NCBI GenBank assembly: GCA_039588295.1
Contig: JBDHAB010000001.1
Coordinates: forward strand, 384,001 to 448,000
Length of the DNA: 64,000 nucleotides
Direction of reading: 5' to 3'
From: Gemmatimonadota bacterium
GTDB lineage: Bacteria > Gemmatimonadota > Gemmatimonadetes > Gemmatimonadales > GWC2-71-9
In this document: one piece after another, positions 45,125 to 63,408 of the stretch
How the letters are laid out: each line of letters starts with the position of its first letter
Numbering within the stretch: position 1 is the first letter of the stretch
Position numbers and translations under genes: made by a program
Notes under the pieces: model-generated
Database searches by the model: none
What the model was told of the DNA's origin: nothing
What the model saw: the letters and a program-made list of their open reading frames with translations, nothing else

Positions 45125-45175
45125 AACGATCCTCCTCTTTCTTGATCAGTGGCGTCGATGTGGAGCCTGATAGCG

Positions 45176-46704: not shown

Positions 46705-46717
46705 GATCCACTGATGG

Positions 46718-47185: not shown

Positions 47186-47246
47186 ACACCCTCCAGTTCC
47201 GGCGGAGGCCGGCTGGTGCCTCAGGCGTTCGCGTCGTGGCACGTTG

Positions 47247-47753
47247 CTATCCGTCGCGCCGTTCCGACACCAATCGCGAAATGGACTGGGCGCCGATCCC
47301 TGCGGATTGGCCGGTCACGACTCGCCGGTGATAGTCCACTTGTCCGAGGTGGAATGCTAGGTGAGCGGCCAGATGGGTCAGGAACAGGCCGGTCGCGAGC
47401 CGGGTGCCGCCGACAGCAAGTGGGTACTGCTGGCTGAGATTTCCATCGTCGAGGCGCTCGAACGTCTGTCGTACCACCCGGATGGTGGCCTCAATCCTAG
47501 CCTCTAGCTCGGAGCGCGGCACCGAGCGGTCGGCAAACTCGGCCTCGCGGTCGCGAACGTAGCCGGTACCGCCCAACTGTGCTCCGATGAAGTGCTGGAG
47601 GTTACCGGTGAGGTGAAGCGCGAGTGTGCCAGCCGAGTTCGCGATTCCCTGGGGGCACGCCCACAGCGCGTCCTCCTCGGGGTACGCACGAATCTCCTCG
47701 CGGAGCGCCGCCAGATCCCGAGCGATGACTAGTTGAAGGAACTCTGTTGTCAT
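47247..47753 (-). CDS. DinB/DUF1572 family protein
   Basis: NSAG.LALHL.GNL.HFIG, RDREAEF, HL..HL.FHLGQ..YHRR. Confidence 0.85.
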   Translation of the reverse strand: MTTEFLQLVIARDLAALREEIRAYPEEDALWACPQGIANSAGTLALHLTGNLQHFIGAQLGGTGYVRDREAEFADRSVPRSELEARIEATIRVVRQTFERLDDGNLSQQYPLAVGGTRLATGLFLTHLAAHLAFHLGQVDYHRRVVTGQSAGIGAQSISRLVSERRDG

Positions 47754-47834
47754 GTCGAACCCCGAAGTCTCCAAACATGGTGGTTTCGCTGCCCTGCCGG
47801 GCACCCACGCGCCGATGGCGGCAGGTAGAGCCCG

Positions 47835-48731
47835 TCAGTTCCCACTGGATCTCAAGAACTCTCGAATCAACGTTCGGAACCGACTGGGATCTTCGATGAA
47901 TGGAAAATGACCGACGTTTGACAATACTTCGAGACGCGCGTTCGGGACCGCAGCTGCCGTCGCCCGGATTGCCGTCGGTGCGAAGACAGAGCAGTCGCCG
48001 TAGATCAGCAAGACGGAGACATCCAGCGCTTGCAGCGGGCCCGTGATATCCCATTCTCCCAGATCGGCCCGAAGGGCGGCAGCGGCAGCGTTCAGGTTTG
48101 CAAGACTGTCCGCGGTGAATCCGAAGTTCAGTGCCTCAGCCTGTGCCGGATCGGCAAAGTACGGCCGTAGAAACACCCGGAAGTAGGCTTCGACGAGTTC
48201 CGGTTGCCGTTGCCAATCGGGATTCGCGGTGAACGCATCGAGGCGTGCCGCGTCCGCGGGCGAACGGCGCGTCGCGATGGTGTCGCGGTAGGTCGCCCAA
48301 CCTGCATAGGTGATCGGGTCGCCGTCGATCACGACCACTCGATCCGTCCGATCCGGATAGGCGATGGCATAATGCAGGGCCAACAACCCACCGAACGAGT
48401 GCCCCAGGAGAGTGACGCGGTCGATGCCGACGGCCGCTCTGACTGCGTCGAGGTCGGCCACGAACTGGGCCATCGTCAGCAACGCGGGCCGATCGGCGCC
48501 GGTCGATGCTCCACTGCCGCGCTGCTCGTAGAAGATGAGCTGCACGATGTCCGAGAGTTGCGCGGTGATCGCATCCTCGAGGTACTGGCGCCCGAACCCT
48601 GGCCCACCCGGAACCACGATCACCGGGGCTCCCGTGCCAACGGCCGTGTACCGCAGCCACGTCCCAGCTACTTCAACACCCCGCCCCAATGGCTCGGCTC
48701 GAGCATGTGGTTGCGTGGAGCCTGGCTTCAT
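47835..48731 (-). CDS. Alpha/beta hydrolase (proline iminopeptidase-like)
   Basis: GGPG, YEQRG.G.S, GHSFGG, GHFPFIE. Confidence 0.88.
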   Translation of the reverse strand: MKPGSTQPHARAEPLGRGVEVAGTWLRYTAVGTGAPVIVVPGGPGFGRQYLEDAITAQLSDIVQLIFYEQRGSGASTGADRPALLTMAQFVADLDAVRAAVGIDRVTLLGHSFGGLLALHYAIAYPDRTDRVVVIDGDPITYAGWATYRDTIATRRSPADAARLDAFTANPDWQRQPELVEAYFRVFLRPYFADPAQAEALNFGFTADSLANLNAAAAALRADLGEWDITGPLQALDVSVLLIYGDCSVFAPTAIRATAAAVPNARLEVLSNVGHFPFIEDPSRFRTLIREFLRSSGN

Positions 48732-48736
48732 GATGG

Positions 48737-49164
48737 CTAACGATCGGTGTAGTGGTCCGCGTCCGCGTACGTGATCAACCAGTCCTTGCCCCGGCGCTGC
48801 CACACGAGCGTGAGTCACGGAAGGTGAACGAAACGACGGCGCCGTCTCGTCCCAGCACGATCACCTCCACAGCGGTAAACCCTGGTTCGAAATGCTGGAA
48901 CGTCCCGAGCGTGCGCCGGATACTGGCGGCGACCGAGTCGTACTCTGAACGGACCCCGTCGTTGTACATGTAGAACTCCGGTGCCAGATGCGCAATCACA
49001 CGCTCGGCATCCAGCGCCCGTTCGGCGGACTCGAACGCACGGGTGGCGGAATCGGCGCTCGCCGCAATGGCCGCGCGCTCCGCGTCAGTCAGAGACGCAC
49101 CGCCGGCCTGACACGCACTGAAGAGTACGCAGCCGAAGAGGAAGGTCGGTCGACAGAATCGCAT
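48737..49164 (-). pseudogene. NTF2/DUF4440 lipoprotein with frameshifting internal deletion
   Basis: ..AVVSFTFRDS then, in another frame, TLVWQRRGKDWLITYADADHYTDR*. Confidence 0.65.
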
Positions 49165-49263
49165 AGCGGGCCCTGCAAGGTTCTCGTCGAAAGCCATGGT
49201 CAACGCTCAAGCGTTAGCGAAATCTACGCGTCGTCAGCCGCTCGCTGGCGCATGCAGAGATCG

Positions 49264-50073
49264 TCACTGAAGCTGGTGACAGCGCCACTCCCCCAGGGAG
49301 GTGAGTTGCAGCGTGCGGAGGTCAAAAGCAAACAGGCTGTCCACTCCCACGTCAAACATGTCAGGGATCTCCGGACAGAGCGAGCGCGGTAGCTCGGCGC
49401 CGCTGAGGAGCCAGATGCGGACTGTGGTGCTATCGATCACGCCGGCCATCTCTCCAGCGCCTTCCAGTGTGAGCAACTTCTTCCGGGACGGCACGTCGTA
49501 CAGGATCAGGTCCCGTAGTTGACCCGTCCCACTGTCGAGGAGGAGGAGGTCTTCCCACAGGCCGGAGTAGTACTCGGCCCACTCGTTGCGGAGGACGAAG
49601 TCGCCAGCTAGGCTATCCGTCGTGCAATCAGCGACGGCAACCGGCGCTCCTGGGGCCCGCTCGCGCACGATGGCAACGGGCTCCGGGTCGGGTGATTCCC
49701 ATTCGACGACCACGTACCGATCGTAATGATGGCAACGCACGCGAGGGGCAACCTCCCTGCTTTCGGTGGCACGGAAGAACATGCGGTAGACGGAGTCCCC
49801 ACCGGTCTGTCCCGCGGGCATGGTAGGGGCGGGCACCTCGAGGTCGGCGGAGTCGAGCGGCTCGGAGGACGCCGGCTGGTTCGTGTCCGGCACGGGCTCG
49901 GCTATAAGGGAATCGGAGGAGAGGGCCGAATGGCCGACGTCGACCGCAGGGTGATCTCGCTTGTCACCTGCGGTGCAGCCAAGGGTGTAAGCCGCGACGA
50001 TGAGCGCAAGAGCGCCCCACCAGCGCTGACGTCGAAGCGCAGCGACCTTCTGCCGCTTCAACACGTGGCTCAC
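49264..50073 (-). CDS. Hypothetical lipoprotein
   Basis: TLGC lipobox, Pro-rich linker, LLLDSGTG motif. Confidence 0.65.
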   Translation of the reverse strand: MSHVLKRQKVAALRRQRWWGALALIVAAYTLGCTAGDKRDHPAVDVGHSALSSDSLIAEPVPDTNQPASSEPLDSADLEVPAPTMPAGQTGGDSVYRMFFRATESREVAPRVRCHHYDRYVVVEWESPDPEPVAIVRERAPGAPVAVADCTTDSLAGDFVLRNEWAEYYSGLWEDLLLLDSGTGQLRDLILYDVPSRKKLLTLEGAGEMAGVIDSTTVRIWLLSGAELPRSLCPEIPDMFDVGVDSLFAFDLRTLQLTSLGEWRCHQLQ

Positions 50074-50265
50074 GGTTCAGATTCCAAGCGGCGACTCCAA
50101 CAACGATTCGAGCCGGAGATCGGCGTAGACTTTAGCGTTGTCGTCTCCCAGTTTGCGGATCATGGTGCCCATGACGCCGTGTAGCATTCACGGTCGAGCT
50201 GTGGATGTCGCTCCAGCTGTGCACCACCATCATCTCCTCTGTTCGCCATCGGCGCCATCCGGCAC

Positions 50266-50646
50266 TCACCGTTGCATGCCGAGGTACATACCGCCGAAGT
50301 AGGGAATCAGCCAGGCCAACCACACGAGCAGACTGTATCGGTGGAAGCCTGCCCGCACCTCTTCGCTTCCCCTCCGCGTGACCCAGCTGGCCCAGATGGC
50401 GTGGGCCAGCATGAGCCAGAGGGCGATTTGTCCGGTGAGTGTGTGCAGCTCCCGCAGGTCGAACGGTCCTTCGGCCATGCGGTGCATGGCCCATGTGCCG
50501 GAAACGTCGAACACGAAGCCGGTCCAGAAGGCGGCCACATGCCACGGCTTCAGGTAGCGGGCGATCCGCTCGGACCAGACCCCCAGGGAGTAGAAGACGA
50601 GCGCGAGCGTGATCAGGGTAGAGGATACGATCAACGGGGTCGACAC
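50266..50646 (-). CDS. HsmA-like small membrane protein
   Basis: ALVFYS.GVW.E, FD.SGT..M, H..TG..A..LM..HA.WA, W..WLIPY. Confidence 0.8.
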   Translation of the reverse strand: MSTPLIVSSTLITLALVFYSLGVWSERIARYLKPWHVAAFWTGFVFDVSGTWAMHRMAEGPFDLRELHTLTGQIALWLMLAHAIWASWVTRRGSEEVRAGFHRYSLLVWLAWLIPYFGGMYLGMQR

Positions 50647-50725
50647 GGGTGCGCCCTAGATGGAAACTGCCTACGTCCCTTGTTCAAATTCATTTCTGCA
50701 CCTCGCCGTGATCCTGCCGTGGCGA

Positions 50726-50914
50726 CTACCCAACGGGACGTTCGAATATCACTTCGCAGAAGTTGGCGCTTGCCCACAAGCCACCGGCCCCGGGCGCGAA
50801 TACCTGCACCAACCGCCAGCCTTCGGAGGCATGGTCCCGGACGACGCTTTGGTACTCTTTGCTCTTTGCACGGCCCTTGAGAGGGACAAATCTGTACTCA
50901 TATCTGGTCTGCAT
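50726..50914 (-). CDS. DUF4177 domain protein
   Basis: YEYRFV ... A.EGWRLVQ ... IFERP. Confidence 0.8.
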   Translation of the reverse strand: MQTRYEYRFVPLKGRAKSKEYQSVVRDHASEGWRLVQVFAPGAGGLWASANFCEVIFERPVG

Positions 50915-50936
50915 GATGAGATCTCCCGATGGATTC

Positions 50937-51065
50937 GCCTAACGGTTCGCGCTTGATTCGGGGCACCGCCACCTACTACCGCTGATGAGCTAGGACCACG
51001 TCGATCGTAGAAACCGCGAATGCTCACCGTGATGCTGCCAGCGGCCTGCTGCAGCTCAGTTTCCA
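50937..51065 (-). mobile_element. attC-like site (R' intact, R'' degenerate)
   Basis: Minus strand ends AATCAAGCGCGAACC-GTTAGGC; begins GGAAAC-TGAG-CTGCAGCAG at the upstream gene stop. Confidence 0.6.
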
Positions 51066-51409
51066 CCAGTCAGCGACGGGAAGCCGATTGCCACCGTGAG
51101 CCGCAGGGCCTGTTCCTCGGAAAATCCCTCCTGCAGCAGCGCCTCGTAGTAGTTGCGGGCAAAGGACGCCAGGCGCTCGGCGGTCTCAGGGCGCTCGAGC
51201 ACGTTCAGCATCGCCTCCATCATGTTCTCCATCATCATGCCGAACGCCGGCCCCATGCTCTGCATCATCGTCGTGACCGAATCCGATGCAGCGCTCGCAT
51301 CGAACGCGGAGGGTTCCTGAGCGCGACCGGAACGTGGCGCTTCGCAGGCGGCCGCGAGCAGGACGACTGCAAGAGCATAGAAGAGTCTGAAACGAAAGGT
51401 GCGAAGCAT
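51056..51409 (-). CDS. Hypothetical lipoprotein
   Basis: LAAAC lipobox; Met-rich; YYEAL..EGFS.EQAL. Confidence 0.7.
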   Translation of the reverse strand: MLRTFRFRLFYALAVVLLAAACEAPRSGRAQEPSAFDASAASDSVTTMMQSMGPAFGMMMENMMEAMLNVLERPETAERLASFARNYYEALLQEGFSEEQALRLTVAIGFPSLTGGN

Positions 51410-51480
51410 AATTCCCCTCTTGTGAAAGGTGCGCAGTGCGCCGCCTAGTGGCTCTGTCCCTCAATACCGTGACGATGCCG

Positions 51481-51786
51481 TCATCGAGGTCCAGTCGCAA
51501 CGTAGTGAGCAAACCCGACCAGGACGAGCACACAAGCCGCCACGACGGGGAGCAGGATCTGCACGTCTCTCACCCCGCTACGGAACAGCCAGGCAGCCGG
51601 GGCGAGGGCAAAGAGCACGAACGCGAGCAGCGTTGGCACAACCCAACGGTGGCCGAAATTCCACGTCCATCCTACGACAAAGCGGTTCCGAACGATGACG
51701 CGTGGATCGGCACGACAGGCATAGATGACGCCCAGCGTCCAATGTCGGTCGTCACTTCGCAGCGCTTCGGCTTCTTCGCGGGTCAT
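51481..51786 (-). CDS. DUF5808-like membrane protein
   Basis: HW.LG.IY....DPR.IV..R...GWT.NFG. Confidence 0.75.
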   Translation of the reverse strand: MTREEAEALRSDDRHWTLGVIYACRADPRVIVRNRFVVGWTWNFGHRWVVPTLLAFVLFALAPAAWLFRSGVRDVQILLPVVAACVLVLVGFAHYVATGPR

Positions 51787-52457
51787 GGCATGTCTCTCGC
51801 CAGTTCATTGATGTCGTGACTCTCGATGATGCGTTTCGAGTATCCGCTCGCGGCCACCCGTATCATGGCGCGACCAACGTTCTCCGTGGTCGTCACGTAT
51901 TTCGGAGCCAGCCGCCTCAGCAGCGGGTACAGAGGACCAACCAATGTGTAGATGGCTTGGTAGAGCTTCGTCTTCGAGCGGACACCCTTGAGCGGCTGGA
52001 TGAAGCCCGGCCGAAACATAAACGCGGCTTTGAACGGCAGGCGGAGCAGGTGGTTCTCGGTCTTGCCCTTCACGCGAGCCCACATGAAGCGCCCGCGTTC
52101 CGTGCTGTCCGTACCCGCTCCCGAGACATAACAGAAGGTCAGAGTGGGATTCAGCGCCACGATCGCTTTTGCCGTGGCCACGGTCAGCTCATACGTCAAG
52201 CGGTGATACTGTTTCTCATTCAGTCGCGCCGCAGACACTCCGAGGCAGAAGAGGCAGGCATCGTAACCCGCCAGATCGGCCTTGATGTCAGCGTAGTCGA
52301 AGAAGTCGGCACGGATGATTTCGTGGACCTTCGGATGCGTCATCCCGCAGGTGCTACGCCCCACGACCAACACTGAAAGCACCCGAGCATCGGCCAGGCA
52401 CTCCTTCAGGACCCCCGACCCAACCATCCCTGTGGCGCCGAAGAGGATGACCTTCAT
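51783..52457 (-). CDS. NAD(P)-binding epimerase-like protein
   Basis: FGATGMVG.GVL.EC, YDAC.FCLG, YVSGAGTD, WARVKG.TEN. Confidence 0.88.
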   Translation of the reverse strand: MKVILFGATGMVGSGVLKECLADARVLSVLVVGRSTCGMTHPKVHEIIRADFFDYADIKADLAGYDACLFCLGVSAARLNEKQYHRLTYELTVATAKAIVALNPTLTFCYVSGAGTDSTERGRFMWARVKGKTENHLLRLPFKAAFMFRPGFIQPLKGVRSKTKLYQAIYTLVGPLYPLLRRLAPKYVTTTENVGRAMIRVAASGYSKRIIESHDINELARDMP

Positions 52458-52545
52458 CGTGTGTCTGCGTCCAGGCTAGGACTCATGTCGGCTCGGCTCG
52501 CAGCGTTCCACCGCGCACGGTTGCACCCATGATGATGGCCGCGCC

Positions 52546-52624
52546 GCCCAAAGGTGCTTCGATAGCGCACGAGCACAATGGTCGCGGTCACGAATCTACG
52601 GCCTCGATACATGCTCTCGTGGAC
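52546..52624 (-). mobile_element. Degenerate attC-like site
   Basis: GTCCAC-GAGAG-CATGTATCG right after the stop; ends GAAGCACC-TTTGGGC. Confidence 0.35.
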
Positions 52625-52625
52625 C

Positions 52626-53888
52626 TCATCGTCGAGTTGGGCTCCCGGGCTGCTCAGTCGACAGAATCGCCTCCATGGCCGCATCCCGCCCGGCGAAGTA
52701 GTCCTCGGAGGAAGGTGGCGCCCAAAGGTCTGGCTCAATCGAGCGGCGTCCATCACCCGGTGCGTCACCGTGGTACACCGACGACACCGTGAGCGTGAGG
52801 TCACTGTTGGGCAGGCGAAGCCTGACGGCGTCGCCGAAGTGGTTGGGGCTCCCCCCGGTCGGCTCCCCGACGAATACCACGCCCGTCGTGGCGTCCAGCC
52901 GCGTGACGAGCTTCTGCGCGGCGGAGTAGGTTCCGCGCCCGATGATCACGTAGAACCGTCCCCTGGTGACCGACGGCGACGACTTCACCCATTCGACGAC
53001 GGGGGCGTTCAGGTAATCATTGCCGCCGCCATTGCCGCGGACGTCCAGCACGATACGCTGGATCGGGAGATCCCTCGCGAACTGCGAAACGCGGTCGAAG
53101 TACTGTGCAATCGTTTCGTCGGAGGCATCCCGCACGCGATTGTACTGCACATAGAGCGTCTGAGATTCCTCCAAGTACTGATGCCAGTAGTTGTCGGCCA
53201 CCCGCCGACGGTAGAGCGGCTCGGTGTCACCTTCCGCCGCGTCGATCCAGTTCAGGGTGGCGTCAAACGGCAGCGGCGTGAGATCGACGGTGAGTTCTCG
53301 GCCCTGGCGGTCCGCCAACACGAAGCGCGCCTGATCTCGGTCCGGGGTGATCTCGAGCGCGTGTAGGATCTCGGGAAGCACCATGGCGTCCGGCACCCGA
53401 TTCTTCAGTGTCATCGCATTGTCATGGGCCGTGATGGTAGCGACCGCAGTGTACGCCTCCTCGGCGGTCCTGTCGCCGAGCTTCAGGAGGCGAGCGCCGA
53501 CGGCGCCTCTCAGCGCAGAGGGCGCGCTGCGCACGAAGATCCCGTCGTCAAAGACGTGGAGACGAAGTGGATACTGACCGGTCAAGAACTGGAGGCCACC
53601 CCGAATGCCGGTATGACCATCCTGGATCATCGCAACGATCCGAGCCATTTCCACGATGATCTCATGGCTGTCCAGCGTGGGAATCCTTGCGTACAGGGCA
53701 TCGACCATGCTTTGCAGGGACTCTTCCGTAACGGCGTGGAACGGGTTCGGGTGATGCGTCCGGATCGATTGCCAAAGGAACGCCAGATCCTCGCGCCATT
53801 GCGACGTGGGGAGAGTCTGAGCTTGTGAAGTGGCGAAGCCCCCGGCGAGCAGCAATGTCAAGAAGACTGGAAGAAATGAACGTTTCAC
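52626..53888 (-). CDS. S41 family peptidase-like secreted protein
   Basis: W.EDL......H.NPF, DGHT, LDVRGNGGGN, GR.TYSAA, VGEPTG. Confidence 0.82.
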   Translation of the reverse strand: MKRSFLPVFLTLLLAGGFATSQAQTLPTSQWREDLAFLWQSIRTHHPNPFHAVTEESLQSMVDALYARIPTLDSHEIIVEMARIVAMIQDGHTGIRGGLQFLTGQYPLRLHVFDDGIFVRSAPSALRGAVGARLLKLGDRTAEEAYTAVATITAHDNAMTLKNRVPDAMVLPEILHALEITPDRDQARFVLADRQGRELTVDLTPLPFDATLNWIDAAEGDTEPLYRRRVADNYWHQYLEESQTLYVQYNRVRDASDETIAQYFDRVSQFARDLPIQRIVLDVRGNGGGNDYLNAPVVEWVKSSPSVTRGRFYVIIGRGTYSAAQKLVTRLDATTGVVFVGEPTGGSPNHFGDAVRLRLPNSDLTLTVSSVYHGDAPGDGRRSIEPDLWAPPSSEDYFAGRDAAMEAILSTEQPGSPTRR

Positions 53889-53972
53889 AAGATCAACTCA
53901 CTCAGTTGACACGTTTCCGTGGCAAGTCAGCGGCACATTCGGGCTGCAGCCGATCTATGGTTGGCGTGTGTG

Positions 53973-54503
53973 CTACCGTGACCAGGGCGGTACGATGTCG
54001 TTCATCCGTGCGTAGGCAACCGACTGCCCGACATGCTCGTTCATATGTGCCAGCAGCTGAAATAGCACCGCCCACCCGGGAACGCTCCGGCCGTAAAGCG
54101 TCGTCAAGCGTGTGAGGTCCGCCTCGCCCATATCATTGACTGACGCTCGGACGTGCTCGATCGATTGCGCCAACAGCTGGGTTACTGTTGCCTTGTCCGT
54201 GATCGACTCGAAGTTCTGCCAATCGACACCTGGAGCGGCGTCAATGCCAAGTGACTGCTCGAGGTACAGATAGTTGTAGCGCGCGATGTGCGCGTAAACG
54301 CGCCCGATCGACATGACGCCCTCGCCGGGACTCCACGTGTAGAGATCTGCGGGAATCTCCCTCGAGAGCATCATGAGTTTTCGACTCGACCGGTCGAAGT
54401 GATTCGCAAACTCATCGCGATAGTCCGTCGGTGCGCTCTGAGCGAGAGAAGTTGTCGCGCCGACGAGCAATGCGAACGCCAGAAGCAGGATGGTACGCGT
54501 CAT
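53973..54503 (-). CDS. Secreted DinB family protein
   Basis: Signal peptide; Y.W.PGEGVMS...V..HIA..N, H..EH.GQ..AYAR.N.IVPPWS. Confidence 0.85.
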   Translation of the reverse strand: MTRTILLLAFALLVGATTSLAQSAPTDYRDEFANHFDRSSRKLMMLSREIPADLYTWSPGEGVMSIGRVYAHIARYNYLYLEQSLGIDAAPGVDWQNFESITDKATVTQLLAQSIEHVRASVNDMGEADLTRLTTLYGRSVPGWAVLFQLLAHMNEHVGQSVAYARMNDIVPPWSR

Positions 54504-54514
54504 TTCAGTCGACC

Positions 54515-54973
54515 TCAAAGTGATGGTGGGGTCATCGAGTCGGCCGCTCCCAGCTCGGGGAGGCGCCGCGCACGGTCGATCGCGGCAGCCATTGCGCTCG
54601 CCTGCTCCCGGTCTCGACGGCGGATCTTAAGCCTGAGTACTCCGAGTCGAGCGCTTGGGATCCCCTCGAAGACCTCGAGGCTTCGCCCCTGGAGCTCCAG
54701 GCGCGGCGTCCACCATGCGCGGAACCGCACGCTTGCGATAGCATTCGCCGGGACCTCGAGCCTCCCGATGGGCGAGCGGTCGACCTCATCAGTCACGCCA
54801 CTGAACGTCACCCACTGCGAATTCCGTGTCGCGGCCCACTGCAAGGAGATGGTGTCCCCGTCGAGATGAAGCAGGCCTTCCACCCGATAGGAGATGGAGC
54901 GCACGCCCTGAGAATCGAGGGCGTCGATGCCCGGAACCCGCAGCCGAAACGGGAGCGGATCGGTCAACGACAT
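54515..54973 (-). CDS. Hypothetical protein
   Basis: RBS AGGAGG; co-oriented; PH-like beta pattern. Confidence 0.65.
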   Translation of the reverse strand: MSLTDPLPFRLRVPGIDALDSQGVRSISYRVEGLLHLDGDTISLQWAATRNSQWVTFSGVTDEVDRSPIGRLEVPANAIASVRFRAWWTPRLELQGRSLEVFEGIPSARLGVLRLKIRRRDREQASAMAAAIDRARRLPELGAADSMTPPSL

Positions 54974-55007
54974 GACCCCTCCTGGCAGCTCGATGCGTCT
55001 GATGCAG

Positions 55008-55463
55008 CTAGGCGCGCGGGTTGCATGCGACTCGAGCACCCTCGTAGCTCACAAGCGCGCTCGCTCCAAACCTCGTAAAGACGTGGCCTCTTCCGGTGAA
55101 TCGCTCGTCTCGGACGTTGCCGAAGAGCCAGATCCACCACGATGCGTCTCCCCACTCAACCCGAACGGAACCAGCCCTCAGCGGTTCCCACCGCCCGCGC
55201 ATCCGTGACCCAGGGATAATGACAACGCCGCGGGCCGTGATCCCAAGCTCGATGTGAGACGGCGCAATGCTCGTGTCAGGATTGGCCATTGGCTCACCGG
55301 CTATACGCTGCAGGGACCAACAAACGCTCGGGAGGTCATCGGGGGGCGGCCGCCGACCCAGCACACCGCAGCCGCTTGCGAGGACCGTGACCAGGAACGC
55401 AACGGCGGCCGGTGAATGGGGGCCGCCTCGAGAGCCGGACAACGCGCCCCTGCCGCTATGCAA
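55008..55463 (-). CDS. Hypothetical lipoprotein
   Basis: LASGC lipobox; start uncertain. Confidence 0.45.
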   Translation of the reverse strand: MHSGRGALSGSRGGPHSPAAVAFLVTVLASGCGVLGRRPPPDDLPSVCWSLQRIAGEPMANPDTSIAPSHIELGITARGVVIIPGSRMRGRWEPLRAGSVRVEWGDASWWIWLFGNVRDERFTGRGHVFTRFGASALVSYEGARVACNPRA

Positions 55464-55641
55464 TAGTCATCTCGGGTAAAGGCAGTTCCTTCAAGTACAG
55501 CGACTCGAGGGCAGCGCCGGTCTCGATGTTGTCGAAGTAGCAGAACTCGCCATGCTCGCCAAGGTTGCCGCTTTGAATCATCTCCTGCCCTTGTCTGGAG
55601 AGTTCATCTTTGGTCGACCGCTCCTTCTCGAGTACATCCAA
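55456..55641 (-). pseudogene. C-terminal remnant of VOC (methylmalonyl-CoA epimerase-like) gene
   Basis: G.EMIQSG....GEFCYFD....GAALE half-domain only. Confidence 0.5.
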
Positions 55642-55665
55642 CTTCTCTTCTAGTTTGTGTCCACG

Positions 55666-56160
55666 TCAGTTCGTGCAATTTGGGGGACGTGGCGGCTGTT
55701 CGGCCAAGTTGGCGGCGAAGGACGCGGGCAGATTGGCCGCATGGAAACCGTCCCGTACCGATCCTTTGAACGCCGTTCCACCGTAGCCGGTCGGATGCAT
55801 GTGTGCCCGCACCAAGATGACTGTGTCGGCCAGCACCGACACCGGCCCGCCGCCCCGTGTGAATGGTTGCTCCGCGACGTGGCTGTGCGACAGCGTTCGC
55901 CGGTAGATCAACCGACCATCCTGGCTCAGCACTTCCCACCAATCGGCGTATAGCCGGCAACCCCTGTCAGGACTTCGGACTCCCACGTCGAATCTATAGG
56001 CCCCTGGCTCTCCAGTGGTGCGCACCGACACGACATCGGCGGCGGGCCCAGGCGATTCGAGTTGAGAGGTCTTCGGTGCCGTCGTCCGACACGCGACCGC
56101 CAGGAGGAGGAGCGGCCACACACCAAGGCAGGCCTTGGGGACTCCAGTACCGAACCTCAT
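55666..56160 (-). CDS. Hypothetical lipoprotein
   Basis: LAVAC lipobox; SPD.GC..YADWWEV, YRR.L.HSHV.EQPF.R, RAHM...GYG. Confidence 0.78.
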   Translation of the reverse strand: MRFGTGVPKACLGVWPLLLLAVACRTTAPKTSQLESPGPAADVVSVRTTGEPGAYRFDVGVRSPDRGCRLYADWWEVLSQDGRLIYRRTLSHSHVAEQPFTRGGGPVSVLADTVILVRAHMHPTGYGGTAFKGSVRDGFHAANLPASFAANLAEQPPRPPNCTN

Positions 56161-56444
56161 CGCTCTATTGATAGGTGACGTCCAGCGCCTGTGCTGCGCG
56201 CGTGCTCGATCATCATGTGGGAACATGTCATTTGAACCACGGTGTCGTCCAGCCAGCATACATCACTCTTCAATCGGGATCGCCGCCCTAGCCGGGGCTT
56301 TACCGGGGGCGCTGGCGGCGGCGAAGTGAAGGAACGGTGTTCAGTTGAGACTCTTCGAGCAAGCGTCATTACGCTGCAGCATTCTGCAACCCACGTTTGC
56401 GTGATGGAACCTCGTGTGACGATGAGCGCCCAACCTGCATGCGA

Positions 56445-56660
56445 TCACCGTTTGGGCAGGAACCAGTGGATGTAACCACAGTCGGCGCAGACGAAGCAAT
56501 CCGCATTTGGCGAGGCCCACTCGAGGTCGAAGAAGGTGGCGACTTGAGTGTGGAGCTGTGCCCGCCGGTGCCAGAACCGATCGTGGTGACAGATTTCACA
56601 CCGGAGGTCGTGTCCTTCGACTTGGGCGGGTTCAGGTTCGCGCTTGCCAAATAGTCCCAT
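56445..56660 (-). CDS. Small zinc-ribbon protein
   Basis: CEIC ... CFVCADCGYIHWF; RBS AGGAGG. Confidence 0.8.
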   Translation of the reverse strand: MGLFGKREPEPAQVEGHDLRCEICHHDRFWHRRAQLHTQVATFFDLEWASPNADCFVCADCGYIHWFLPKR

Positions 56661-56684
56661 TGGACCTCCTTGCCTTCAGACCAC

Positions 56685-56736
56685 GCTGAACGGTCCGTGC
56701 CGCTGCCAGGGGGCCGGCTTCAGGCGCCCATTAGAC
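56685..56736 (-). mobile_element. attC-like site (short)
   Basis: GTCTAAT (contains gene stop TAA)-GGGCG-CCTGAAGC ... GCACGGACC-GTTCAGC. Confidence 0.6.
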
Positions 56737-57105
56737 ATCACCATCCTGCCAACGGCGACCGCCAAGTACCCAAAGTGGTATCGTGAGGGGTAGCAGGAGA
56801 GACGCGGACCACCAACCCGTGATTCCCATTTGTCGCGCGTCACCGAGCGCCCAGACCCCCCACGCCACTGCGGTGAAGAAGAGGATGTAGATCGGCGTCA
56901 TGAGGCGTCGATAGCTGACGGCTGGGTATCGCCACGGAGCGAAGAGTAGAATCGAAGTCACGGCCGCTCCGAGGATGGCGAGCCCCAGCGCCGCACGCTC
57001 GGGCTCGCCCTGAGCTAAGACGATTACCGAAAGAATCAACACCCACACGAATCCTCCGGACCACCCTAGCACCCAGCCGAGCTTCTCGCCGGACCGTGTT
57101 GTCAT
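56731..57105 (-). CDS. Hypothetical membrane protein
   Basis: GEKLGW..GW.GGF.W, APWR.P...Y..LM.P.Y; four TM. Confidence 0.75.
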   Translation of the reverse strand: MTTRSGEKLGWVLGWSGGFVWVLILSVIVLAQGEPERAALGLAILGAAVTSILLFAPWRYPAVSYRRLMTPIYILFFTAVAWGVWALGDARQMGITGWWSASLLLPLTIPLWVLGGRRWQDGDV

Positions 57106-57129
57106 GACCCCCACCGGGACAGAAGTGAT

Positions 57130-57265
57130 GTCCAACGTGCCGGCGTGTGAGCCGCGGGCGACGTGCCCGCCAGTCGCACCTCTGAGTTGGATCTGCTCGT
57201 ATTTAGCCAGGCGCTCGCATCCGCGCCACCTACCGCCCCCGCTCAGCTCCTAACGCGTGCTAGGC
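57130..57265 (-). mobile_element. attC-like site
   Basis: GCCTAGC-ACGCG-TTAGGAGCTG ... CGGCTCACACGCCGGCAC-GTTGGAC, complementary arms. Confidence 0.7.
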
Positions 57266-57298
57266 AGTGGGCTCGGCGATGCACTCCGAGCGGACACA

Positions 57299-57703
57299 TC
57301 AACAGGTCGAGTGGATAAGCGCCCCGGCCGGATGTGCCTCCGACAGCTCGTTGTAGAGGCGTACGGCCTCCTCGGTCTTGACCACATGTGCGATGACGTT
57401 GTTCGACTCGAGCATTCGCAGGGTCTCGGGACACACTTGCAGGCGGCCGAGCATACCCGTTGACAGCACCACCACTACCGCGCCGCGCACGAGTAGCTCT
57501 TCGACATCAGCAGGTTGCGTCCCGGGTTGATGATTGGTGCCAGTTTCCCGCCAGTCCCATTCCCGAGCACCGCCGGGAAAGAGCTTGGCGTCCTTGAATG
57601 CACCATGGGACTCCACACGCACGTGACCCCAAGAGAGGTGCGCAATGCGCGGGGATACGGGCTGTTCCTTCAGGAGGGCCGTCTCCAATCCGATGATTGT
57701 CAC
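57299..57703 (-). CDS. Mth938-like (AAMDC) domain protein
   Basis: SPRI.HLSWG, KDAKLFPGG.REWDW.ETGT.H.PG, G.LIHSTC; start placed after attC. Confidence 0.88.
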   Translation of the reverse strand: MTIIGLETALLKEQPVSPRIAHLSWGHVRVESHGAFKDAKLFPGGAREWDWRETGTNHQPGTQPADVEELLVRGAVVVVLSTGMLGRLQVCPETLRMLESNNVIAHVVKTEEAVRLYNELSEAHPAGALIHSTC

Positions 57704-57711
57704 TCGCCGCT

Positions 57712-57776
57712 GTCCAACGACCTGGCGCTGAGCTACAGCGCCACGGAACCTGCGCCTTTGAGCGTTCCCGCTAGGC
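57712..57776 (-). mobile_element. attC-like site
   Basis: GCCTAGC (contains gene stop TAG)-GGGAACGCTCAAAGG ... GTAGCTCAGCGCCAGGTC-GTTGGAC. Confidence 0.7.
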
Positions 57777-58172
57777 CGCTTCAATGCGGTTGAAGATCTC
57801 CACCATCCGCTCAGGATTGACATAGAGCTGCCATACAGCGACACGCCCATCTTCGACCACGACACGCCACGCCGCCTGCGCTACCCAGTGATTCTCTGAT
57901 TTGAGCACTCCGTCCTGATCGAATGTACCCTCGGCGACGCCAAACAGTGCGACTGTGTCACCCTGCGAAAACGCGTCTTTCACGTGAATCTGAAAGTCAG
58001 GAACCATCGAGAAGTACTTCTCCCATCCCCGACGCATCTCCTCGCGTCCGGAATGTTCACTGCCATCAGAGTCCACGAACGCGTGGTTCTCTGTCATCAG
58101 AGTTGAAAGCAGATCCGGATTGCCGGAATTGATGGCATCGACGAATGAATATGCAACCTGAGTGGGAGTCAT
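57771..58172 (-). CDS. SnoaL/NTF2 family protein
   Basis: FVDAIN, LMT..H.FVD..G, W..YF...PD, AAWR, WQ.Y. Confidence 0.85.
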   Translation of the reverse strand: MTPTQVAYSFVDAINSGNPDLLSTLMTENHAFVDSDGSEHSGREEMRRGWEKYFSMVPDFQIHVKDAFSQGDTVALFGVAEGTFDQDGVLKSENHWVAQAAWRVVVEDGRVAVWQLYVNPERMVEIFNRIEAA

Positions 58173-58202
58173 TCTGTGACACTCCTCTACGCCACCTAAC
58201 GG

Positions 58203-58472
58203 TCAGGCCAGGGTGGTGAACCATATTGCTGGCTCGCCAGCCACGCCGGCTGCTGACATCACTTCACCCAAGCGGTCGGACGCTACAAAGGCTCGGGTAG
58301 CCTGCAGTGTCTCAAAGTCATGCCACGCGGTCACGTCGTTGGGGTCGTCCGCCGACATGAAGACCGCGTCACCAATCACGCCCATGCCCTTCCGCTCATC
58401 GTCGAAATCGTCATAGGCCTGTTTCCACTTGGCGAAGTCGGCTACTGGATGGCGCACAAACATGCGAATCAT
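58203..58472 (-). CDS. Small cyclase/ABM-like protein
   Basis: VRH.V.DF..WK..YD, DPNDV...HDF, M..AGV.GEP. Confidence 0.8.
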   Translation of the reverse strand: MIRMFVRHPVADFAKWKQAYDDFDDERKGMGVIGDAVFMSADDPNDVTAWHDFETLQATRAFVASDRLGEVMSAAGVAGEPAIWFTTLA

Positions 58473-58509
58473 GGTGACCTCGTGAGTGGGTGTTGTGAGT
58501 TGGGACTGC

Positions 58510-58598
58510 CGCTAACGTGCAGCGCGGCCGCACACAGGAGATACACTGCTCGGCAGCGCTAGGGCAACTGCCGGTCTCCCCTGCAAATGGCGGTCACC
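58510..58598 (-). mobile_element. Degenerate attC-like site
   Basis: Stop TAA-A-GGTGACC-GCCAT-TTGCAGGGG ... GCTGCAC-GTTAGCG. Confidence 0.5.
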
Positions 58599-58599
58599 T

Positions 58600-58953
58600 T
58601 TACACGCTCATCGCCTTCGGTCGTGCATGCCGTGACTGATAGATGCCGAGCTTGCCGCCGCCCGGCAGGGTCAGGCGCGTGATCAAGCCCCAACTCTCGG
58701 TCTGCACGGGGCTGCTCGTGATGCCGTATTTCTTCATTTCCGCGGTGAACGCCTCGACATCGTCGCACATCAGATAGAACTCGTGCACGTCGTTCTGTTC
58801 GGATGGATGTACTGCAACCTCCGCCGGTGGCAATCCGAAGATCAGCCAGCCGCCGCCCACATCGACATTCGTCAGCTTGAGTACGTCCCGCAGAAAGGCG
58901 CGGTCGGCATCCGGATTCGTGCTGTAGATGATTGAATGCGCACCGATGATCAT
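58600..58953 (-). CDS. VOC family (extradiol dioxygenase-like) protein
   Basis: MIIGAH.IIYS....ADRAF.RDVL, GWLIFGLPP.EVAVHP, LMCDD. Confidence 0.88.
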   Translation of the reverse strand: MIIGAHSIIYSTNPDADRAFLRDVLKLTNVDVGGGWLIFGLPPAEVAVHPSEQNDVHEFYLMCDDVEAFTAEMKKYGITSSPVQTESWGLITRLTLPGGGKLGIYQSRHARPKAMSV

Positions 58954-59229
58954 GGTAGCTGTTCCTCCACTATCGGCACCATGTTGCTGACAGATCCGGT
59001 GGTGTCTCGCTCCAACCTTGGGGTGTCATGCGAGGTCATAGTCGAGTGTAAGCGTGTGCCGGCCGCAACGGGCTGGCGCGGGGGCAGGGACGATTGCATC
59101 GCGTAGCGAAGCATGTCACTGTCCAGCGAAGGTTTCCATCTCAACCAGAAGCTCGGGAAACACGAGAGGGTTGACGCCGAGCAAAGACTGGGGAGGACGG
59201 GTCCGCGCCTCTCCATTTCACAAGGACGC

Positions 59230-60015
59230 TCATGATCGCCGGTTCAGGATTTCTTTGCGCAGGATGTTCCTGAACCGCCCCTTGCTCACGTAATGATCGG
59301 ACAGCAGCTTGCCGTTCCACACCAGGTTAAAGACACCGTAATAGGAAGGAGCATGTTGCGCTTCTTCCGGACTGTCGAGCACCGTGACATTCAGTTCGAG
59401 TCCGTGTTCGGCCGCCATCTCTGAGAGGTCGCTCACCGACTTCGGCAGCATGGGACATTGAGCGCCGTAAACGATGTGCAGGCCCTTGTACCGTGCCAGG
59501 TTGGCGGTGATGTCGCGGAAGCGCGGTGCGGGGCCTTCTTCCAGCCGGTGAATGACAAGCTCGAACCGATCGGCCTGTGCTATCGGCTCGAATCCGTTGT
59601 TGAGAAACACTTGCCTGCCTGCCATCCACGGGCCCTCGCTCACCATCGCTGCGACCCCTCTGACGCCCACCTGTCGGGCTTCCTCTACGCAGGCTTGGAT
59701 CAAGCGGCTCCCGAGCCCGCCCACCTTTTGCCCTGCGGAATAGACCCACAGGCAATGCACAAACAGCCAGCCTTTGGCGTCCACCGGCCGCCAGGCGTAT
59801 TCGCCCGGCACGTATTCGAGGAACGCCAACGGCTTGCCCTTGCCGTCACGGAACAGCAGAAAGCGCAGGCCCTCGGCGAACCGCTCTTGTAGCCATTCGA
59901 CTTTGGGATCATGGCCAAGATGCTTCGGATTCGTGATGCAGCCGATGCCGCACGGCGCCAGGTTTCCAGGACCGACCTTTTCCAGGGTAGCCTCAGGCAT
60001 TCGTTGCTGCTTCAT
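59230..60015 (-). CDS. GNAT acetyltransferase with YoaP domain
   Basis: K..WL..RF.EGL, EYVPGEYAWRPV, HCLWV, QCP, AQ.APS.Y. Confidence 0.88.
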   Translation of the reverse strand: MKQQRMPEATLEKVGPGNLAPCGIGCITNPKHLGHDPKVEWLQERFAEGLRFLLFRDGKGKPLAFLEYVPGEYAWRPVDAKGWLFVHCLWVYSAGQKVGGLGSRLIQACVEEARQVGVRGVAAMVSEGPWMAGRQVFLNNGFEPIAQADRFELVIHRLEEGPAPRFRDITANLARYKGLHIVYGAQCPMLPKSVSDLSEMAAEHGLELNVTVLDSPEEAQHAPSYYGVFNLVWNGKLLSDHYVSKGRFRNILRKEILNRRS

Positions 60016-60016
60016 G

Positions 60017-60496
60017 CTACGTCCCGTCCTGAACCCAGGTCCAGCTCAGGAACAGCCACTTGCCTCCCTCCTTCACCAGCGTCGCCGTCCACCTCCCAGC
60101 AACAGACTGATCCACGCCCGCTCCAAACTTCATTGCTTCCCGGTAACGGAGGTGGACGATCGCCACGTCATGACGCAGCTGCACCGCAAGTGGCTCAACG
60201 TCGAACTCCGTGATCGTACCATTCGCGTAGAAACCCTCAATCATTGTTCTGATTTGTCGGCGACCCAGGGGTACATCCTGCTTGTAGTCCCAGCCTTGAA
60301 ACTCCTCATGGAAGTAGCTCATGATCTCTTCCACATCCCCTGCAATCGATACCCGGGTGTACTCATCGAGCGCCGCAAGCACCTCTTGTTGGGCCGGCGA
60401 CCATTCCTGGGCAATCAGCGACGCCGGCCTCACGACTGGAACAACGATGCTGGCCAGCACCGCACAGCCGGTGACGAGTTGTTTCATGGTACTCAT
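60017..60496 (-). CDS. Secreted NTF2/DUF4440 protein
   Basis: Signal peptide; W...Q.EV, DVAIVH, GRWT..LVKEGGKW. Confidence 0.8.
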   Translation of the reverse strand: MSTMKQLVTGCAVLASIVVPVVRPASLIAQEWSPAQQEVLAALDEYTRVSIAGDVEEIMSYFHEEFQGWDYKQDVPLGRRQIRTMIEGFYANGTITEFDVEPLAVQLRHDVAIVHLRYREAMKFGAGVDQSVAGRWTATLVKEGGKWLFLSWTWVQDGT

Positions 60497-60604
60497 GCCT
60501 CCGTCATAGACCCCCGGTGATACCGGATTCGGACCAACGGGTTGCCGCGGTTGAACGGTTCTCGGTTTTGCTGTGGGCGTCACGCCCACGGTACACGATC
60601 ATCA

Positions 60605-60699
60605 TTTCCTCGCATCAGTCTCTTGCCTTGACGCGGCAGCCGACACGCGGGCCTCCCCGAGTCGTGCGCGGCAGCGAGCTGATGAGGTGCGTGTTAGGC
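60605..60699 (-). mobile_element. attC-like site (R'' intact, R' lost)
   Basis: GCCTAAC 8 nt after stop, then ACGCACCTCATCAGCT ... GACTGATGCG. Confidence 0.5.
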
Positions 60700-60707
60700 A
60701 GCGGCGG

Positions 60708-60875
60708 TCAGGACGCCTGTTTGCCTTTGTAGACAGTGACAAGCCCCTTGATGATGAAGAAGGTCCCGAGGCCGTCAAAGAAGAGGTTGAAAAGGCTGAA
60801 ATCGCCCAAGAAGACGGATCCGCCAAAGAAGAGACCGATGGCGATCAGAACCACACCCGTGATGATATCCCGCAC
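60708..60875 (-). CDS. Small two-TM protein (55 aa)
   Basis: Not in ORF track; RBS GGGAGG, MRDIITGVVLIAIGLFFGGSVFLGDFSLFNLFFDGLGTFFIIKGLVTVYKGKQAS*. Confidence 0.75.
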   Translation of the reverse strand: MRDIITGVVLIAIGLFFGGSVFLGDFSLFNLFFDGLGTFFIIKGLVTVYKGKQAS

Positions 60876-60949
60876 TTGGAGCCCTCCCTGAGGTAGACGG
60901 TTCGTGCTATGGTTTCCGCGCTACGTCACGCTGCCGGCTGACGTCGGTA

Positions 60950-61043
60950 GCCGAACGTGCACAGTTTCCCGATGGCGCACAACCCACCGGCTTTCAGTCA
61001 GACGAACGGGCCCGTGCTCGCCAGGTCCTCACACGTGTTTGGC
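60950..61043 (-). mobile_element. Degenerate attC-like site
   Basis: GCCAAAC-ACGTG-TGAGGACCTG ... TGTGCAC-GTTCGGC. Confidence 0.45.
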
Positions 61044-61188: not shown

Positions 61189-63408
61189 GTGCGATTCCCG
61201 AGGCTGTTCGCTGCTCATGCGCTGACCAATACCTCAGGTCCCTTCGCGTTCGCGTGGGTCCGCAGGGCCATTCTGGCCGGGTGGTTGGCGGCGATGGTCG
61301 TGGCCGTCGGCGTCGGCGTCTTCGGATTTCGCATCGACAACTCCGTTGGGGTGTGGTTCGCGGCGGATGATCCCGCGCTCGCGGACTATCGCCGCTTTCT
61401 GACGGATTTCGGGAACCGCGAGTGGATACTCGTGGCCCTGGAGCGCCACCCTGCCAATCGTCACGCTCGGGTCGCCGGTCGGGATGCGCTGGTCGCGACG
61501 CTGGGGCAGATGGATCATGTGCACCGGGTCCTCTCGTCCTCGGACTTCCCGGAGGAAAGTGATCTCGTCCGGAAGTTCCTGAAGCCGAACACGGAGAGTC
61601 CCTACGAGGCGCTGCTGCTCCAAGTCACCAACGACATCGAGACGCAGGACGGATATCGCGAGGCGCTCGTCACCGAGATCCGGCGGGTCGCGCAGGCGTT
61701 TCCGACCATCGACAACGTACATGTTGCGGGTACGGCGGTGATCAACGGAGAGCTGAACCGTGCCGCCCGTCGGGACATGTTCCTCTTTTTCCCGGTCGTC
61801 GCCCTGTTCGTTGCCCTCTTGGGAGGCGTGATCTTCCGCAACGCGCGCGACACAGCCGTTCTGCTCAGCGTGTCGCTCGGGACGGTCGTCGGCACTGAAA
61901 GTCTTCTCATCGGCATTGGGTACCCGCTGAATATGATCACCATCATGCTGCCGACGGTGCTCATCGCCCTCTCGGTGGCCGATGCGGTTCATCTGATCCA
62001 TGCCTTTCACACCTTCCGCGCGAGCGTGGGAGACGCTGCGTCTGCCACCACCCGGGCGGTGAAGTCCATCGCCTGGCCCTGCGCCGGCACCAGTCTGACG
62101 ACCATCGCGGGTTTCCTCGCCTTCTCCGGAAGCGACGTTCTCCCGGTCTTCCAGCTGGCGGTCTTTGGTGCGGTCGGCATCGCGATGGCCTGGGTGCTGA
62201 CAATGACCGTCGCACCTGTCCTCCTCACGGTGCTGTGGCGGGAAACCCGGCGCCCGGAGCTCCCGGCTGCGGCGCTGGGGGAGCGACTCCTCGGACAGTG
62301 GTGGCGGTTTGCCGACCGGCACCCCCGCTGGATCGTTGCCGCGTTCTCGGTGGCAGCTGTCTTGTTGGTCGGCTTGGTGTCGTTGCGGGCCGATACGGAC
62401 TACGTGAAGTTCTTCCGATCCGGGACCAGGGTTCCACAGGACTACCAGGTGCTCCAGCGGGAGGGATTTCCCCAGAACCCACTCAACCTCGTACTCCGGT
62501 TGCCGGCGGGCGAATCCCCCCTCTCGCCGGAGTACTTGAGTCCCCTGCGGTCGTTTGCCAGCAGCTTGGAGACGCTTCCCGGTGTGCAATCGGTGCTGTC
62601 TCCGTTCGTCATGGCGAACGCGCCGGCTGCCATGGGCGACCAAGCGGCGAGCCACGGCGGCATGCTCTCCCGCCAGTCGGACCAGCTGCAGTTCGTCGTG
62701 ATGATGGATCACACGAGCAGCCAAGAACTCTTCAAGCTGCTCCCGGAGATTCGGGCGTTGGCCCGGCGAGTCCTTCCGTCCGAAATGCGCCTGATCCCCA
62801 CCGGGACCTCTCTCCTCTGGGCCCGCATGGACGACGGTGTCATCCGCACACAGAGGCAATCGTTGCTCATCGTGTCCGTGGTGTGCTTCGGCATTCTCGC
62901 CGTGCTGTTCCGCTCTCTCTGGTTGGCCGCGCTCGGTCTGGTGTTCAGCCTTTATCCGGTGGCCATGGTCCTGGGTCTGATGGGCCTGTGGCGTATCCCG
63001 GTGAACATCGCGACGGTGCTCATCGCCGGGATCGCTGTAGGGCTCGCCGTGGACGACACGATCCACGTCGTCCACACGTTCCAGGAGCTGCGCCGGCGGG
63101 GCATGGACCGCAGCAAAGCCTGTGAGGAGACCCTGGTCGCGGTGGGTCTGCGGATGGTGATGACGTCGTGCATTCTGGTGGGGTCGTTCGCCATCATGGG
63201 GCTCTCCGACTTCATGCCCACCTCGCAGTTCGGGCTTCTCAGCTCGCTCACCATCGTGCTGGCCCTCGCGGCGGACGCGACGCTTCTCCCCGTCGTTCTG
63301 GCGTGGCGCCGTCGAGAACCCGCTGGACAGCGCCGCACCGATCGCGCACTGGCGGAGACCGTCGATGCCGACCCCGGGCTCTCGAGCCCAACTGCATGGG
63401 GAGGCTGA
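61189..63408 (+). CDS. MMPL/RND family transporter
   Basis: Two repeats of TM + loop + TM bundle; ALSVADAVH, TSLTTIAGF, GLAVDDTIH. Confidence 0.9.
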   Translation: MRFPRLFAAHALTNTSGPFAFAWVRRAILAGWLAAMVVAVGVGVFGFRIDNSVGVWFAADDPALADYRRFLTDFGNREWILVALERHPANRHARVAGRDALVATLGQMDHVHRVLSSSDFPEESDLVRKFLKPNTESPYEALLLQVTNDIETQDGYREALVTEIRRVAQAFPTIDNVHVAGTAVINGELNRAARRDMFLFFPVVALFVALLGGVIFRNARDTAVLLSVSLGTVVGTESLLIGIGYPLNMITIMLPTVLIALSVADAVHLIHAFHTFRASVGDAASATTRAVKSIAWPCAGTSLTTIAGFLAFSGSDVLPVFQLAVFGAVGIAMAWVLTMTVAPVLLTVLWRETRRPELPAAALGERLLGQWWRFADRHPRWIVAAFSVAAVLLVGLVSLRADTDYVKFFRSGTRVPQDYQVLQREGFPQNPLNLVLRLPAGESPLSPEYLSPLRSFASSLETLPGVQSVLSPFVMANAPAAMGDQAASHGGMLSRQSDQLQFVVMMDHTSSQELFKLLPEIRALARRVLPSEMRLIPTGTSLLWARMDDGVIRTQRQSLLIVSVVCFGILAVLFRSLWLAALGLVFSLYPVAMVLGLMGLWRIPVNIATVLIAGIAVGLAVDDTIHVVHTFQELRRRGMDRSKACEETLVAVGLRMVMTSCILVGSFAIMGLSDFMPTSQFGLLSSLTIVLALAADATLLPVVLAWRRREPAGQRRTDRALAETVDADPGLSSPTAWGG

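Follow-up and report, generated by a model that had tools for sequence, protein, structure and literature searches.

Toward the right-hand end of a 64,000-nucleotide stretch of a Gemmatimonadota genome (GenBank GCA_039588295.1), referred to here as the window, small minus-strand genes are separated by spacers that resemble attC, the recombination site of integron gene cassettes. The window corresponds to C1:384001-448000 of a draft genome of 4.5 Mb in 160 contigs; C1, C3 and so on denote contigs of this genome, and G001-G008, G027 and so on other genomes compared. Near-identical DNA is present in sediment metagenomes; among the public runs listed as containing it, there was no RNA data set. 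An initial annotation, made from the letters alone, had described an integrase-less cassette array limited to 50937..61043. The present analysis concerns the ancestry of these sites, their relation to an integrase gene (intI), and the long tract that they head.

Genes and spacers of the locus

Genes were predicted with a simple codon-model gene caller. Between 1697 and 61043, 78 of the 79 genes were found on the minus strand, forming a 59-kb tract in which the median product is 159 residues long, against 284 genome-wide. Within the tract, 59 consecutive genes share one strand, separated by a median spacer of 134 bases; this run is the second longest of its kind in the genome and the sole long one that is not operon-like, in a genome where 75% of neighbouring gene pairs are co-oriented. 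The attC relics sit at the upstream end of the tract, its head, among genes that are likely former cassettes (Table 1). Besides the families in Table 1, the cargo includes DUF498, S41 peptidase, NAD(P)-binding and DUF4177 genes as well as genes with no Pfam match. The claim of typical cassette cargo thus stands for NTF2/SnoaL, GNAT, DinB and DUF genes; the gene possibly meant as VOC has no Pfam match. Furthermore, the element extends past the limits first given for it.

To prevent circularity, reference attC sites were taken from other genomes only. Of 39 candidate sites, 23 went into an arm matrix; a broad covariance model (R1) was built from 34 sites and a genus covariance model (R2) from 79 same-genus attC, none from the genome itself; local alignment was performed against 203 non-redundant intact attC, with 350 co-oriented spacers as the null (99th percentile 43.5). 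Six minus-strand arm matches above 11.5 bits were found between 50943 and 61043 (10.15 kb), where 0.17 would be expected at the genome-wide rate (Poisson 3e-8, or 3e-5 corrected for about 900 windows). Five spacers exceed the null 99th percentile, all on the expected strand. Altogether, seven spacers are supported as attC relics: six of the eight first proposed, and 50179-50260.

The strongest site, 57130-57265, scores 50.1 bits with R2 (E 1e-8) and 14.8 bits with R1 (E 0.22); its alignment with an intact G004 attC runs over the full length (score 129), and it is 74% identical to an attC on C86 of its own genome. At 60950-61043 the R box closes and the L box is open in the fold, with 10.8 bits from R2 (E 2.1). 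The site first read as 60605-60699 proved to be longer, extending over 60550-60699, of which the initial reading had covered the left two thirds. The alignment scores of 57712-57776 (35) and 56685-56736 (33; R2 9.4 bits, E 4) are below significance, and each of these two is supported by a single arm. The R'' and R' boxes pair at 3-4 of 7 Watson-Crick positions in five sites, and at 6 of 7 only in 60950-61043; the AAC triplet is altered at 57265, 57776 and 56736. In a functional attC the RYYYAAC and GTTRRRY boxes base-pair in the bottom strand, and the hairpin so formed includes an L box with extrahelical bases; the window sites fall short in both respects and are eroded relics, probably not working attC. 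Intact attC elsewhere in the genome mostly fold into a long stem, and R1 found eight sites of 26-54 bits there (150 of 7457 candidates scored).

The boxes quoted in the initial annotation were found at their coordinates on the minus strand, as were the stop codons at 56731 and 57771 inside R''-like boxes. Its reading of cassette architecture and attC ancestry holds, by the clustering of arms and by homology to intact attC, and the locus is very likely an eroded cassette array. Some of its details were dropped as evidence, being at or below null levels: the spacers 52546-52624 (score 38) and 58510-58598 (score 32), both with negative arm scores, and the lone R' boxes (56428-56434, 58194-58200) taken as cassette signs, since such boxes are not commoner in the window than in shuffles (2 against 3.3 and 11 against 15.1 expected). 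The possibly collapsed site at 58194..58208 is likewise a motif that by itself is not above chance. An Rfam scan gave two matches at chance level, neither relevant, and PADLOC matched none of 29 proteins.

Table 1. Features of the locus, in window coordinates except where a contig is named
Feature	Position	Strand	Details
attC, full-length, eroded; strongest of the cluster	57130..57265	-	R'' GCCTAGC, R' GTTGGAC; AAC triplet altered
Eroded attC at array head, without cassette gene upstream	60950..61043	-	Alignment score 69.5; reached by 0/350 null spacers
Eroded attC	60550..60699	-	Internal motif and right arm in common with a genus attC family; spacer score 58; R2 13.5 bits, E 0.57
attC relic, right arm present, left arm mostly deleted	57712..57776	-	Right arm 17.9 bits; stop of upstream gene within R''
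attC relic, left arm present, right arm gone	56685..56736	-	Left arm 14.5 bits; stop of upstream gene within R''
attC relic, right arm only	50937..50980	-	20-base exact match to right end of intact G003 attC; score 48.5; 14.0 bits
attC relic (right half), absent from the initial annotation	50179..50260	-	Score 61 against 31 on opposite strand; directly after stop of gene 50266-50646
Candidate collapsed attC	58194..58208	-	R''-like box with stop codon, then R' box at once; R' matrix 12.4 against 95th percentile 6.4
Some 21 small genes of one orientation, likely once cassettes	50266..60875	-	Pfam, gene calls
SnoaL/NTF2 genes	57771-58172 and 60017-60487	-	
GNAT gene	59230-60015	-	
DinB gene	53973-54518	-	
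attC-less continuation of one-strand small-gene tract	1697..50073	-	One plus-strand gene, 15630-17042
MMPL transporter gene, outside array	61189..63408	+	Pfam MMPL; first gene of unrelated block adjoining array head
intI, full-length	C3:777-1721		393 bits against cut-off 265; stop-free

The integrase and the orthologous locus

The description of the array as integrase-less is correct for its own contig and incorrect for the genome. On C1, translated in six frames with stops read through, no match to TIGR02249 or PF00589 was found; none of the 13 tyrosine-recombinase matches of the genome lies there, and no other recombinase that might drive the array was found on that contig. The search of the whole genome located an intact intI on C3. 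Its product aligns with IntI4 (structure 2A3V) at E 8e-78 over 312 residues without large gaps; the alignment contains the IntI-type insertion and the residues R-K-H-R-H-Y, which we take to be the catalytic ones. The closest relatives of this IntI are from Gemmatimonadota, at 61-66% identity. An attI-like GTTAGGC lies at C3:525, about 250 bases beyond the intI stop, and the motif preceding it is common to relatives. Past it come one co-oriented gene and, where the contig ends, an interrupted R'' box; the truncated attC there scores -3.5 bits with the arm model. This integrase and attI are not contiguous with the window array, whose upstream side is occupied by the unrelated MMPL cluster and by other genes spanning 42 kb, and no link between C1 and C3 was found among contig-end overlaps.

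The layout on C3 is inverted: intI is co-oriented with the cassettes, and attI lies downstream of it. Among relatives, co-oriented attC arms lie downstream of intI in 27 of 42 rows (18 of 30 distinct intI), and divergent arms upstream in none of the 42, the upstream flank examined being mostly only 1.5 kb. An intI above the cut-off was found in 35 of 61 genomes and attC matches in 51 of 61; kin are among these genomes, so the counts are not independent. Within the genus, intI occurs at four or more chromosomal loci, with 61-67% identity between species, a pattern that would fit a platform that moves or is acquired anew. As for the sites themselves, the canonical extrahelical base of proteobacterial attC is G; many Gemmatimonadota attC have a C on the bottom strand at that position (alignment column 190), which may bear on IntI specificity.

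Five same-genus genomes carry the orthologous tract. Retention of genes at this locus falls toward the head: 14 of 17 genes at 1.7-12.6 kb, 9 of 45 at 12.6-44 kb, and 1 of 29 at 44-61 kb. In G008 the tract leads up to four attC cassettes that run to the edge of the contig, and its intI is found on C44 beside orthologs of the genes upstream of the C3 intI. G003 (93% complete) has an intact array at the tract head, and no intI was found in it. In G001 (96% complete) the tract continues unbroken into orthologs of the C3 genes, with neither intI nor attC. In G007, orthologs of these C3 genes adjoin an intI fragment and attC. Based on this synteny, in which relatives place the tract beside the genes that flank intI on C3, the tract and intI appear to have once been neighbours. 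Gene order is shuffled among the relatives rather than fully conserved, and homologs of the array gene 54515-54973 adjoin attC in G001 and G008.

Relatives also show a gradient behind intI, from intact attC to half-sites to none. One case is a large sedentary integron of inverted type at G027:C1:1076380-1175000, with 58 attC matches, most of them belonging to one 141-base family; about 55 near-identical intact sites are followed by half-sites and then by about 35 kb of mostly same-strand small genes without sites. The window corresponds to the half-site zone of such a gradient. In the genome itself, attC clusters were also observed on C86, C54, C7 and at the end of C2; the ends of C5 and C70 and the start of C13 resemble intI-less array heads, and on C36 intact attC grade into half-sites. 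The genome's intact sites include C54:14418-14560 and C86:4972-5106. A minus-strand run of 65 same-strand genes at C5:12685-80285, mostly operon-like, has three scattered arm matches of 14-17 bits and is possibly another old tail.

A few genes of the tract have a history of their own. Genes 35864-36223 and 51056-51409, the latter followed by an attC relic, have homologs farther from the head in the relatives' orthologous tract and lie nearer to it here. The small membrane-protein gene 60704-60897 has a copy of about 90% identity in another organism (two runs of one study), with both flanks different. Two genes, 25772-27343 and 42198-43436, are predicted by Pfam to have the beta-lactamase (serine hydrolase) fold.

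Origin of the array and of the attC-less tract

Overall, the locus is probably a decayed cluster of attC sites with no integron-integrase (CALIN) that represents the old, probably immobile tail of the resident chromosomal integron, whose intact intI lies on C3; detachment of the array from that integron seems the likelier course than construction on the spot. Several results weigh against this. With R1 no significant match exists in the window, the best being the marginal one at 57130-57265, and with R2 only that site is clearly significant (the only one passing E 0.01), three further sites being at E 1-4. None of ten stretches folded into a full hairpin with R and L boxes; nine were no more stable than shuffles, and the tenth, 57712, consists of two unrelated local hairpins. 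The links from tract to intI in G008 and G003 span contig gaps and are drawn from the contiguity in G001. In G002, G004 and G005 intI is at other loci, so the platform is not fixed in the genus, and further attC clusters without intI in the genome itself (C5, C13, C70, C36) indicate that arrays can arise away from intI. Finally, the junction 61043-61189 is bridged by none of the low-depth public-run contigs listed, which is uninformative either way and compatible with a mis-join.

A reading of the spacers as boxes arisen by chance, or as intergenic hairpins with no relation to attC, in a region of 62% GC would agree with the poor folds and with a strict filter for intact attC, which returned 20 sites genome-wide against 14-16 in shuffles and none in the window. 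It does hold for 52546 and 58510, and probably also for the lone boxes; for the locus as a whole it is very nearly negligible, being largely refuted by the end-to-end homology of 57130-57265 with intact attC and by the five spacers beyond the null. The cluster might instead have been built in place, a trans-acting IntI having put cassettes at a secondary (attG) site and then at the resident attC, without the array ever being joined to intI or attI. Such an origin is named as a source of CALINs in the available part of PMC8618304 and experimentally shown in that of 10.1101/2022.09.11.507474; the several intI-less clusters of the genome and the near absence of the head genes from the same locus in relatives speak for it. 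It appears improbable nonetheless, since the same tract leads in G008 and G003 to an intact array, and in G001 to orthologs of the intI-flanking genes of C3, and an intI fragment with attC adjoins those orthologs in G007. More improbable still is an assembly artefact, in which a false join near 61100 on C1 would hide an array that actually runs through unassembled cassettes to the attI and intI of C3 as a complete integron with an old tail. The draft is fragmented, the ends of C3 and of at least six more contigs lie in or near attC, and none of the contigs listed bridges the junction; however, no repeat is present at the junction, and contig breaks fall in intact sites, unlike 60950-61043, which is already eroded. 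Both sides of the junction are found at 99% identity or more in the same three low-depth runs, which indicates the same organism and does not imply adjacency.

A separate question is the part of the tract without attC. That most of the genes at 1.7-50 kb were never cassettes, and form an ordinary strand-biased region (replication or transcription bias, or an insertion hot spot), has about an even chance; that most of 12-50 kb is also cassette-derived is rather doubtful. Against the cassette origin, no attC relic above background was found by arm and box matrices in the spacers of 1.6-50 kb, and none of 18 distal genes has an attC-adjacent homolog. At homolog loci in other genera, none of 40 targeted matches was attC-adjacent (one incidental neighbour was, and attC arms were nearby in 3 of the 40), with no excess of co-orientation (0.77 against a 0.72 baseline, p 0.25); 29 more loci, mostly of two large enzyme genes, included none that was attC-adjacent. 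The attC-less part also includes ordinary genes and blocks found elsewhere in relatives, namely MsrA, pyridoxal-phosphate enzymes, a dUTPase and an operon with an extracytoplasmic-function sigma factor, and co-oriented neighbours are common throughout the genome. On the other side stand the 59-gene run itself, with wide spacers and not operon-like, and an excess of genes with attC-adjacent homologs: 3 of 65 in the attC-less part against 13 of 2961 others (p 0.004), or 4 of 63 at 17-61 kb against the same 13 of 2961 (3.0 Mb of fetched loci). The three, 22813, 40914 and 46195, all lie outside the relic zone, and the arrays concerned were chosen independently. Nine arrays picked by intI or attC alone are divided when judged by eye, with tails of at least 10 kb in four, no long tail in four and one unjudgeable; five further arrays with tails had been picked for holding homologs of window genes. 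Away from the locus, homologs of head genes fall within attC-headed tails in 9 of 43 matches, against 1 of 51 control matches; these nine amount to five genes from two related tails, together with one array, and hence are not independent. This test used 46 rows (without G000, G005-G007 and attC-site matches), and its control 51 rows, from which mostly kinase paralogues had been omitted. Among individual spacers, alignment matches at 39487-39871 and 54973-55456 were rejected for nearly equal scores on the opposite strand, and two others, at 34254-34385 and 56178-56310, are weak.

The substrate of IntI is the folded bottom strand of attC, which it recombines with attI, and new cassettes enter at the head; insertion at attI therefore moves older cassettes away from it. 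For a detached tail of the resident integron, cassettes would thus have been laid down at attI and the older ones displaced. Their attC sites may then have eroded through point changes and internal deletions, which would halt excision and fix the genes, and a rearrangement or large insertion at about 61043-61189 may have split the array from intI and attI. The general integron scheme is also given in the available parts of PMC4889954 and PMC9024848, and loss of folded attC by slippage, fixing a gene, is suggested in 10.1101/2022.09.11.507474. Although the IntI of C3 could still act in trans, little or no mobility of the array is predicted, because two usable sites are required for excision, and 57130-57265 alone comes close to the quality of a substrate.

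At the junction, the MMPL cluster next to the array head has a DNA match in none of the five same-genus genomes searched, and beyond it lies a block whose homologs are elsewhere in relatives. The cluster (61189-64000 and C1:447410-452322) encodes the MMPL transporter, a 1025-residue protein with an N-terminal class III aminotransferase domain and a 612-residue neighbour, and looks like an acquired biosynthetic cluster. Several blocks at C1:452600-484500 are 82-93% identical to G003 and G008, against 70-78% for typical orthologous DNA, which suggests recent transfer within the genus.

Relation to known integrons and significance

The CALIN criterion is two or more attC on one strand within 4 kb by covariance model, without a nearby intI. 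The window comes up to it at best marginally and by the genus model only, with 57130-57265 (E 1e-8) and 60550-60699 (E 0.57) lying 3.3 kb apart. Judged by homology, five spacers count as attC, and the locus is then a CALIN whose sites are very degenerate; C1 has no intI or intI pseudogene, and the single co-oriented genes vary among relatives. With the CALINs of Cury et al. 2016 (PMC4889954) the locus shares a same-strand attC cluster, cassette-type cargo and the absence of intI within 4 or 10 kb. It differs from them in that its sites are mostly half-sites below model thresholds, and IntegronFinder would probably report one window site or none; furthermore, both its cognate intI and its ancestral locus are traceable, and it stands at the head of a one-strand tract of 59 kb. 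In its available part, that paper leaves the origin of CALINs open and proposes those with very degenerate attC as a step between gene capture and fixation.

Other known systems resemble the locus in single respects. The intI of C3 and of its relatives shares its orientation with the cassettes, and the downstream attI, with the inverted integrase group of the Treponema type (PMC3607928 and PMC4889954, as far as available), in which T. phagedenis lost intI yet retains attC sites; here the phylum is another, intI is retained in the genome but detached, and several states of the locus occur in one genus. The Xanthomonas integrons and CALINs (10.1101/2025.06.18.660453) likewise show inactivation that is lineage-specific, and CALINs that occupy conserved loci apart from intI. 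There, however, intI is fixed at ilvD and not at four or more loci, and attC-less tails are not among the features described in the available part of that source. Insertion at attG, giving single attC sites lacking integron-integrases (SALIN; 10.1101/2022.09.11.507474), accounts for cassettes away from intI and for folded attC that replication slippage can delete; it predicts scattered single insertions, whereas a polarised cluster at the ancestral integron locus is seen here.

The suggestion that this lineage has seen little integron work needs qualification: integrons are common in it, and Gemmatimonadota are named among integron-bearing phyla in the available part of PMC8618304. CALINs, inverted integrases, Gemmatimonadota integrons and the domestication idea are already in print (PMC4889954, PMC3607928, PMC8618304). 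A literature search, in which supplements were not covered, returned no dedicated study of Gemmatimonadota arrays or attC-less tails; Table S3 of PMC9024848 may list Gemmatimonadota elements.

As a CALIN the locus is ordinary, and its value is that of a test locus for cassette domestication, since it probably records captured genes becoming fixed chromosomal genes. One locus is seen across the genus in several states, namely intI with an intact array, an intact array alone, an eroded array, and a tail only. Together with the gradients of attC decay and gene retention, these states make the domestication idea directly testable on closed genomes. A bolder and distinctly tentative proposal, on present evidence unlikely, is that most of the 59-kb tract is integron sediment, that is, cassettes laid in order at attI, stripped of attC and retained as ordinary genes. 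If so, age would be readable along the tract, from intact sites through half-sites and no sites to genus-conserved genes, and Gemmatimonadota chromosomes would hold tens of kb of fossil cassettes per array, invisible to attC searches. Current tools would then undercount integron contributions to genomes, and integrons would rank among the major contributors to the accessory genome of Gemmatimonadota, and even to the genus-core genome.

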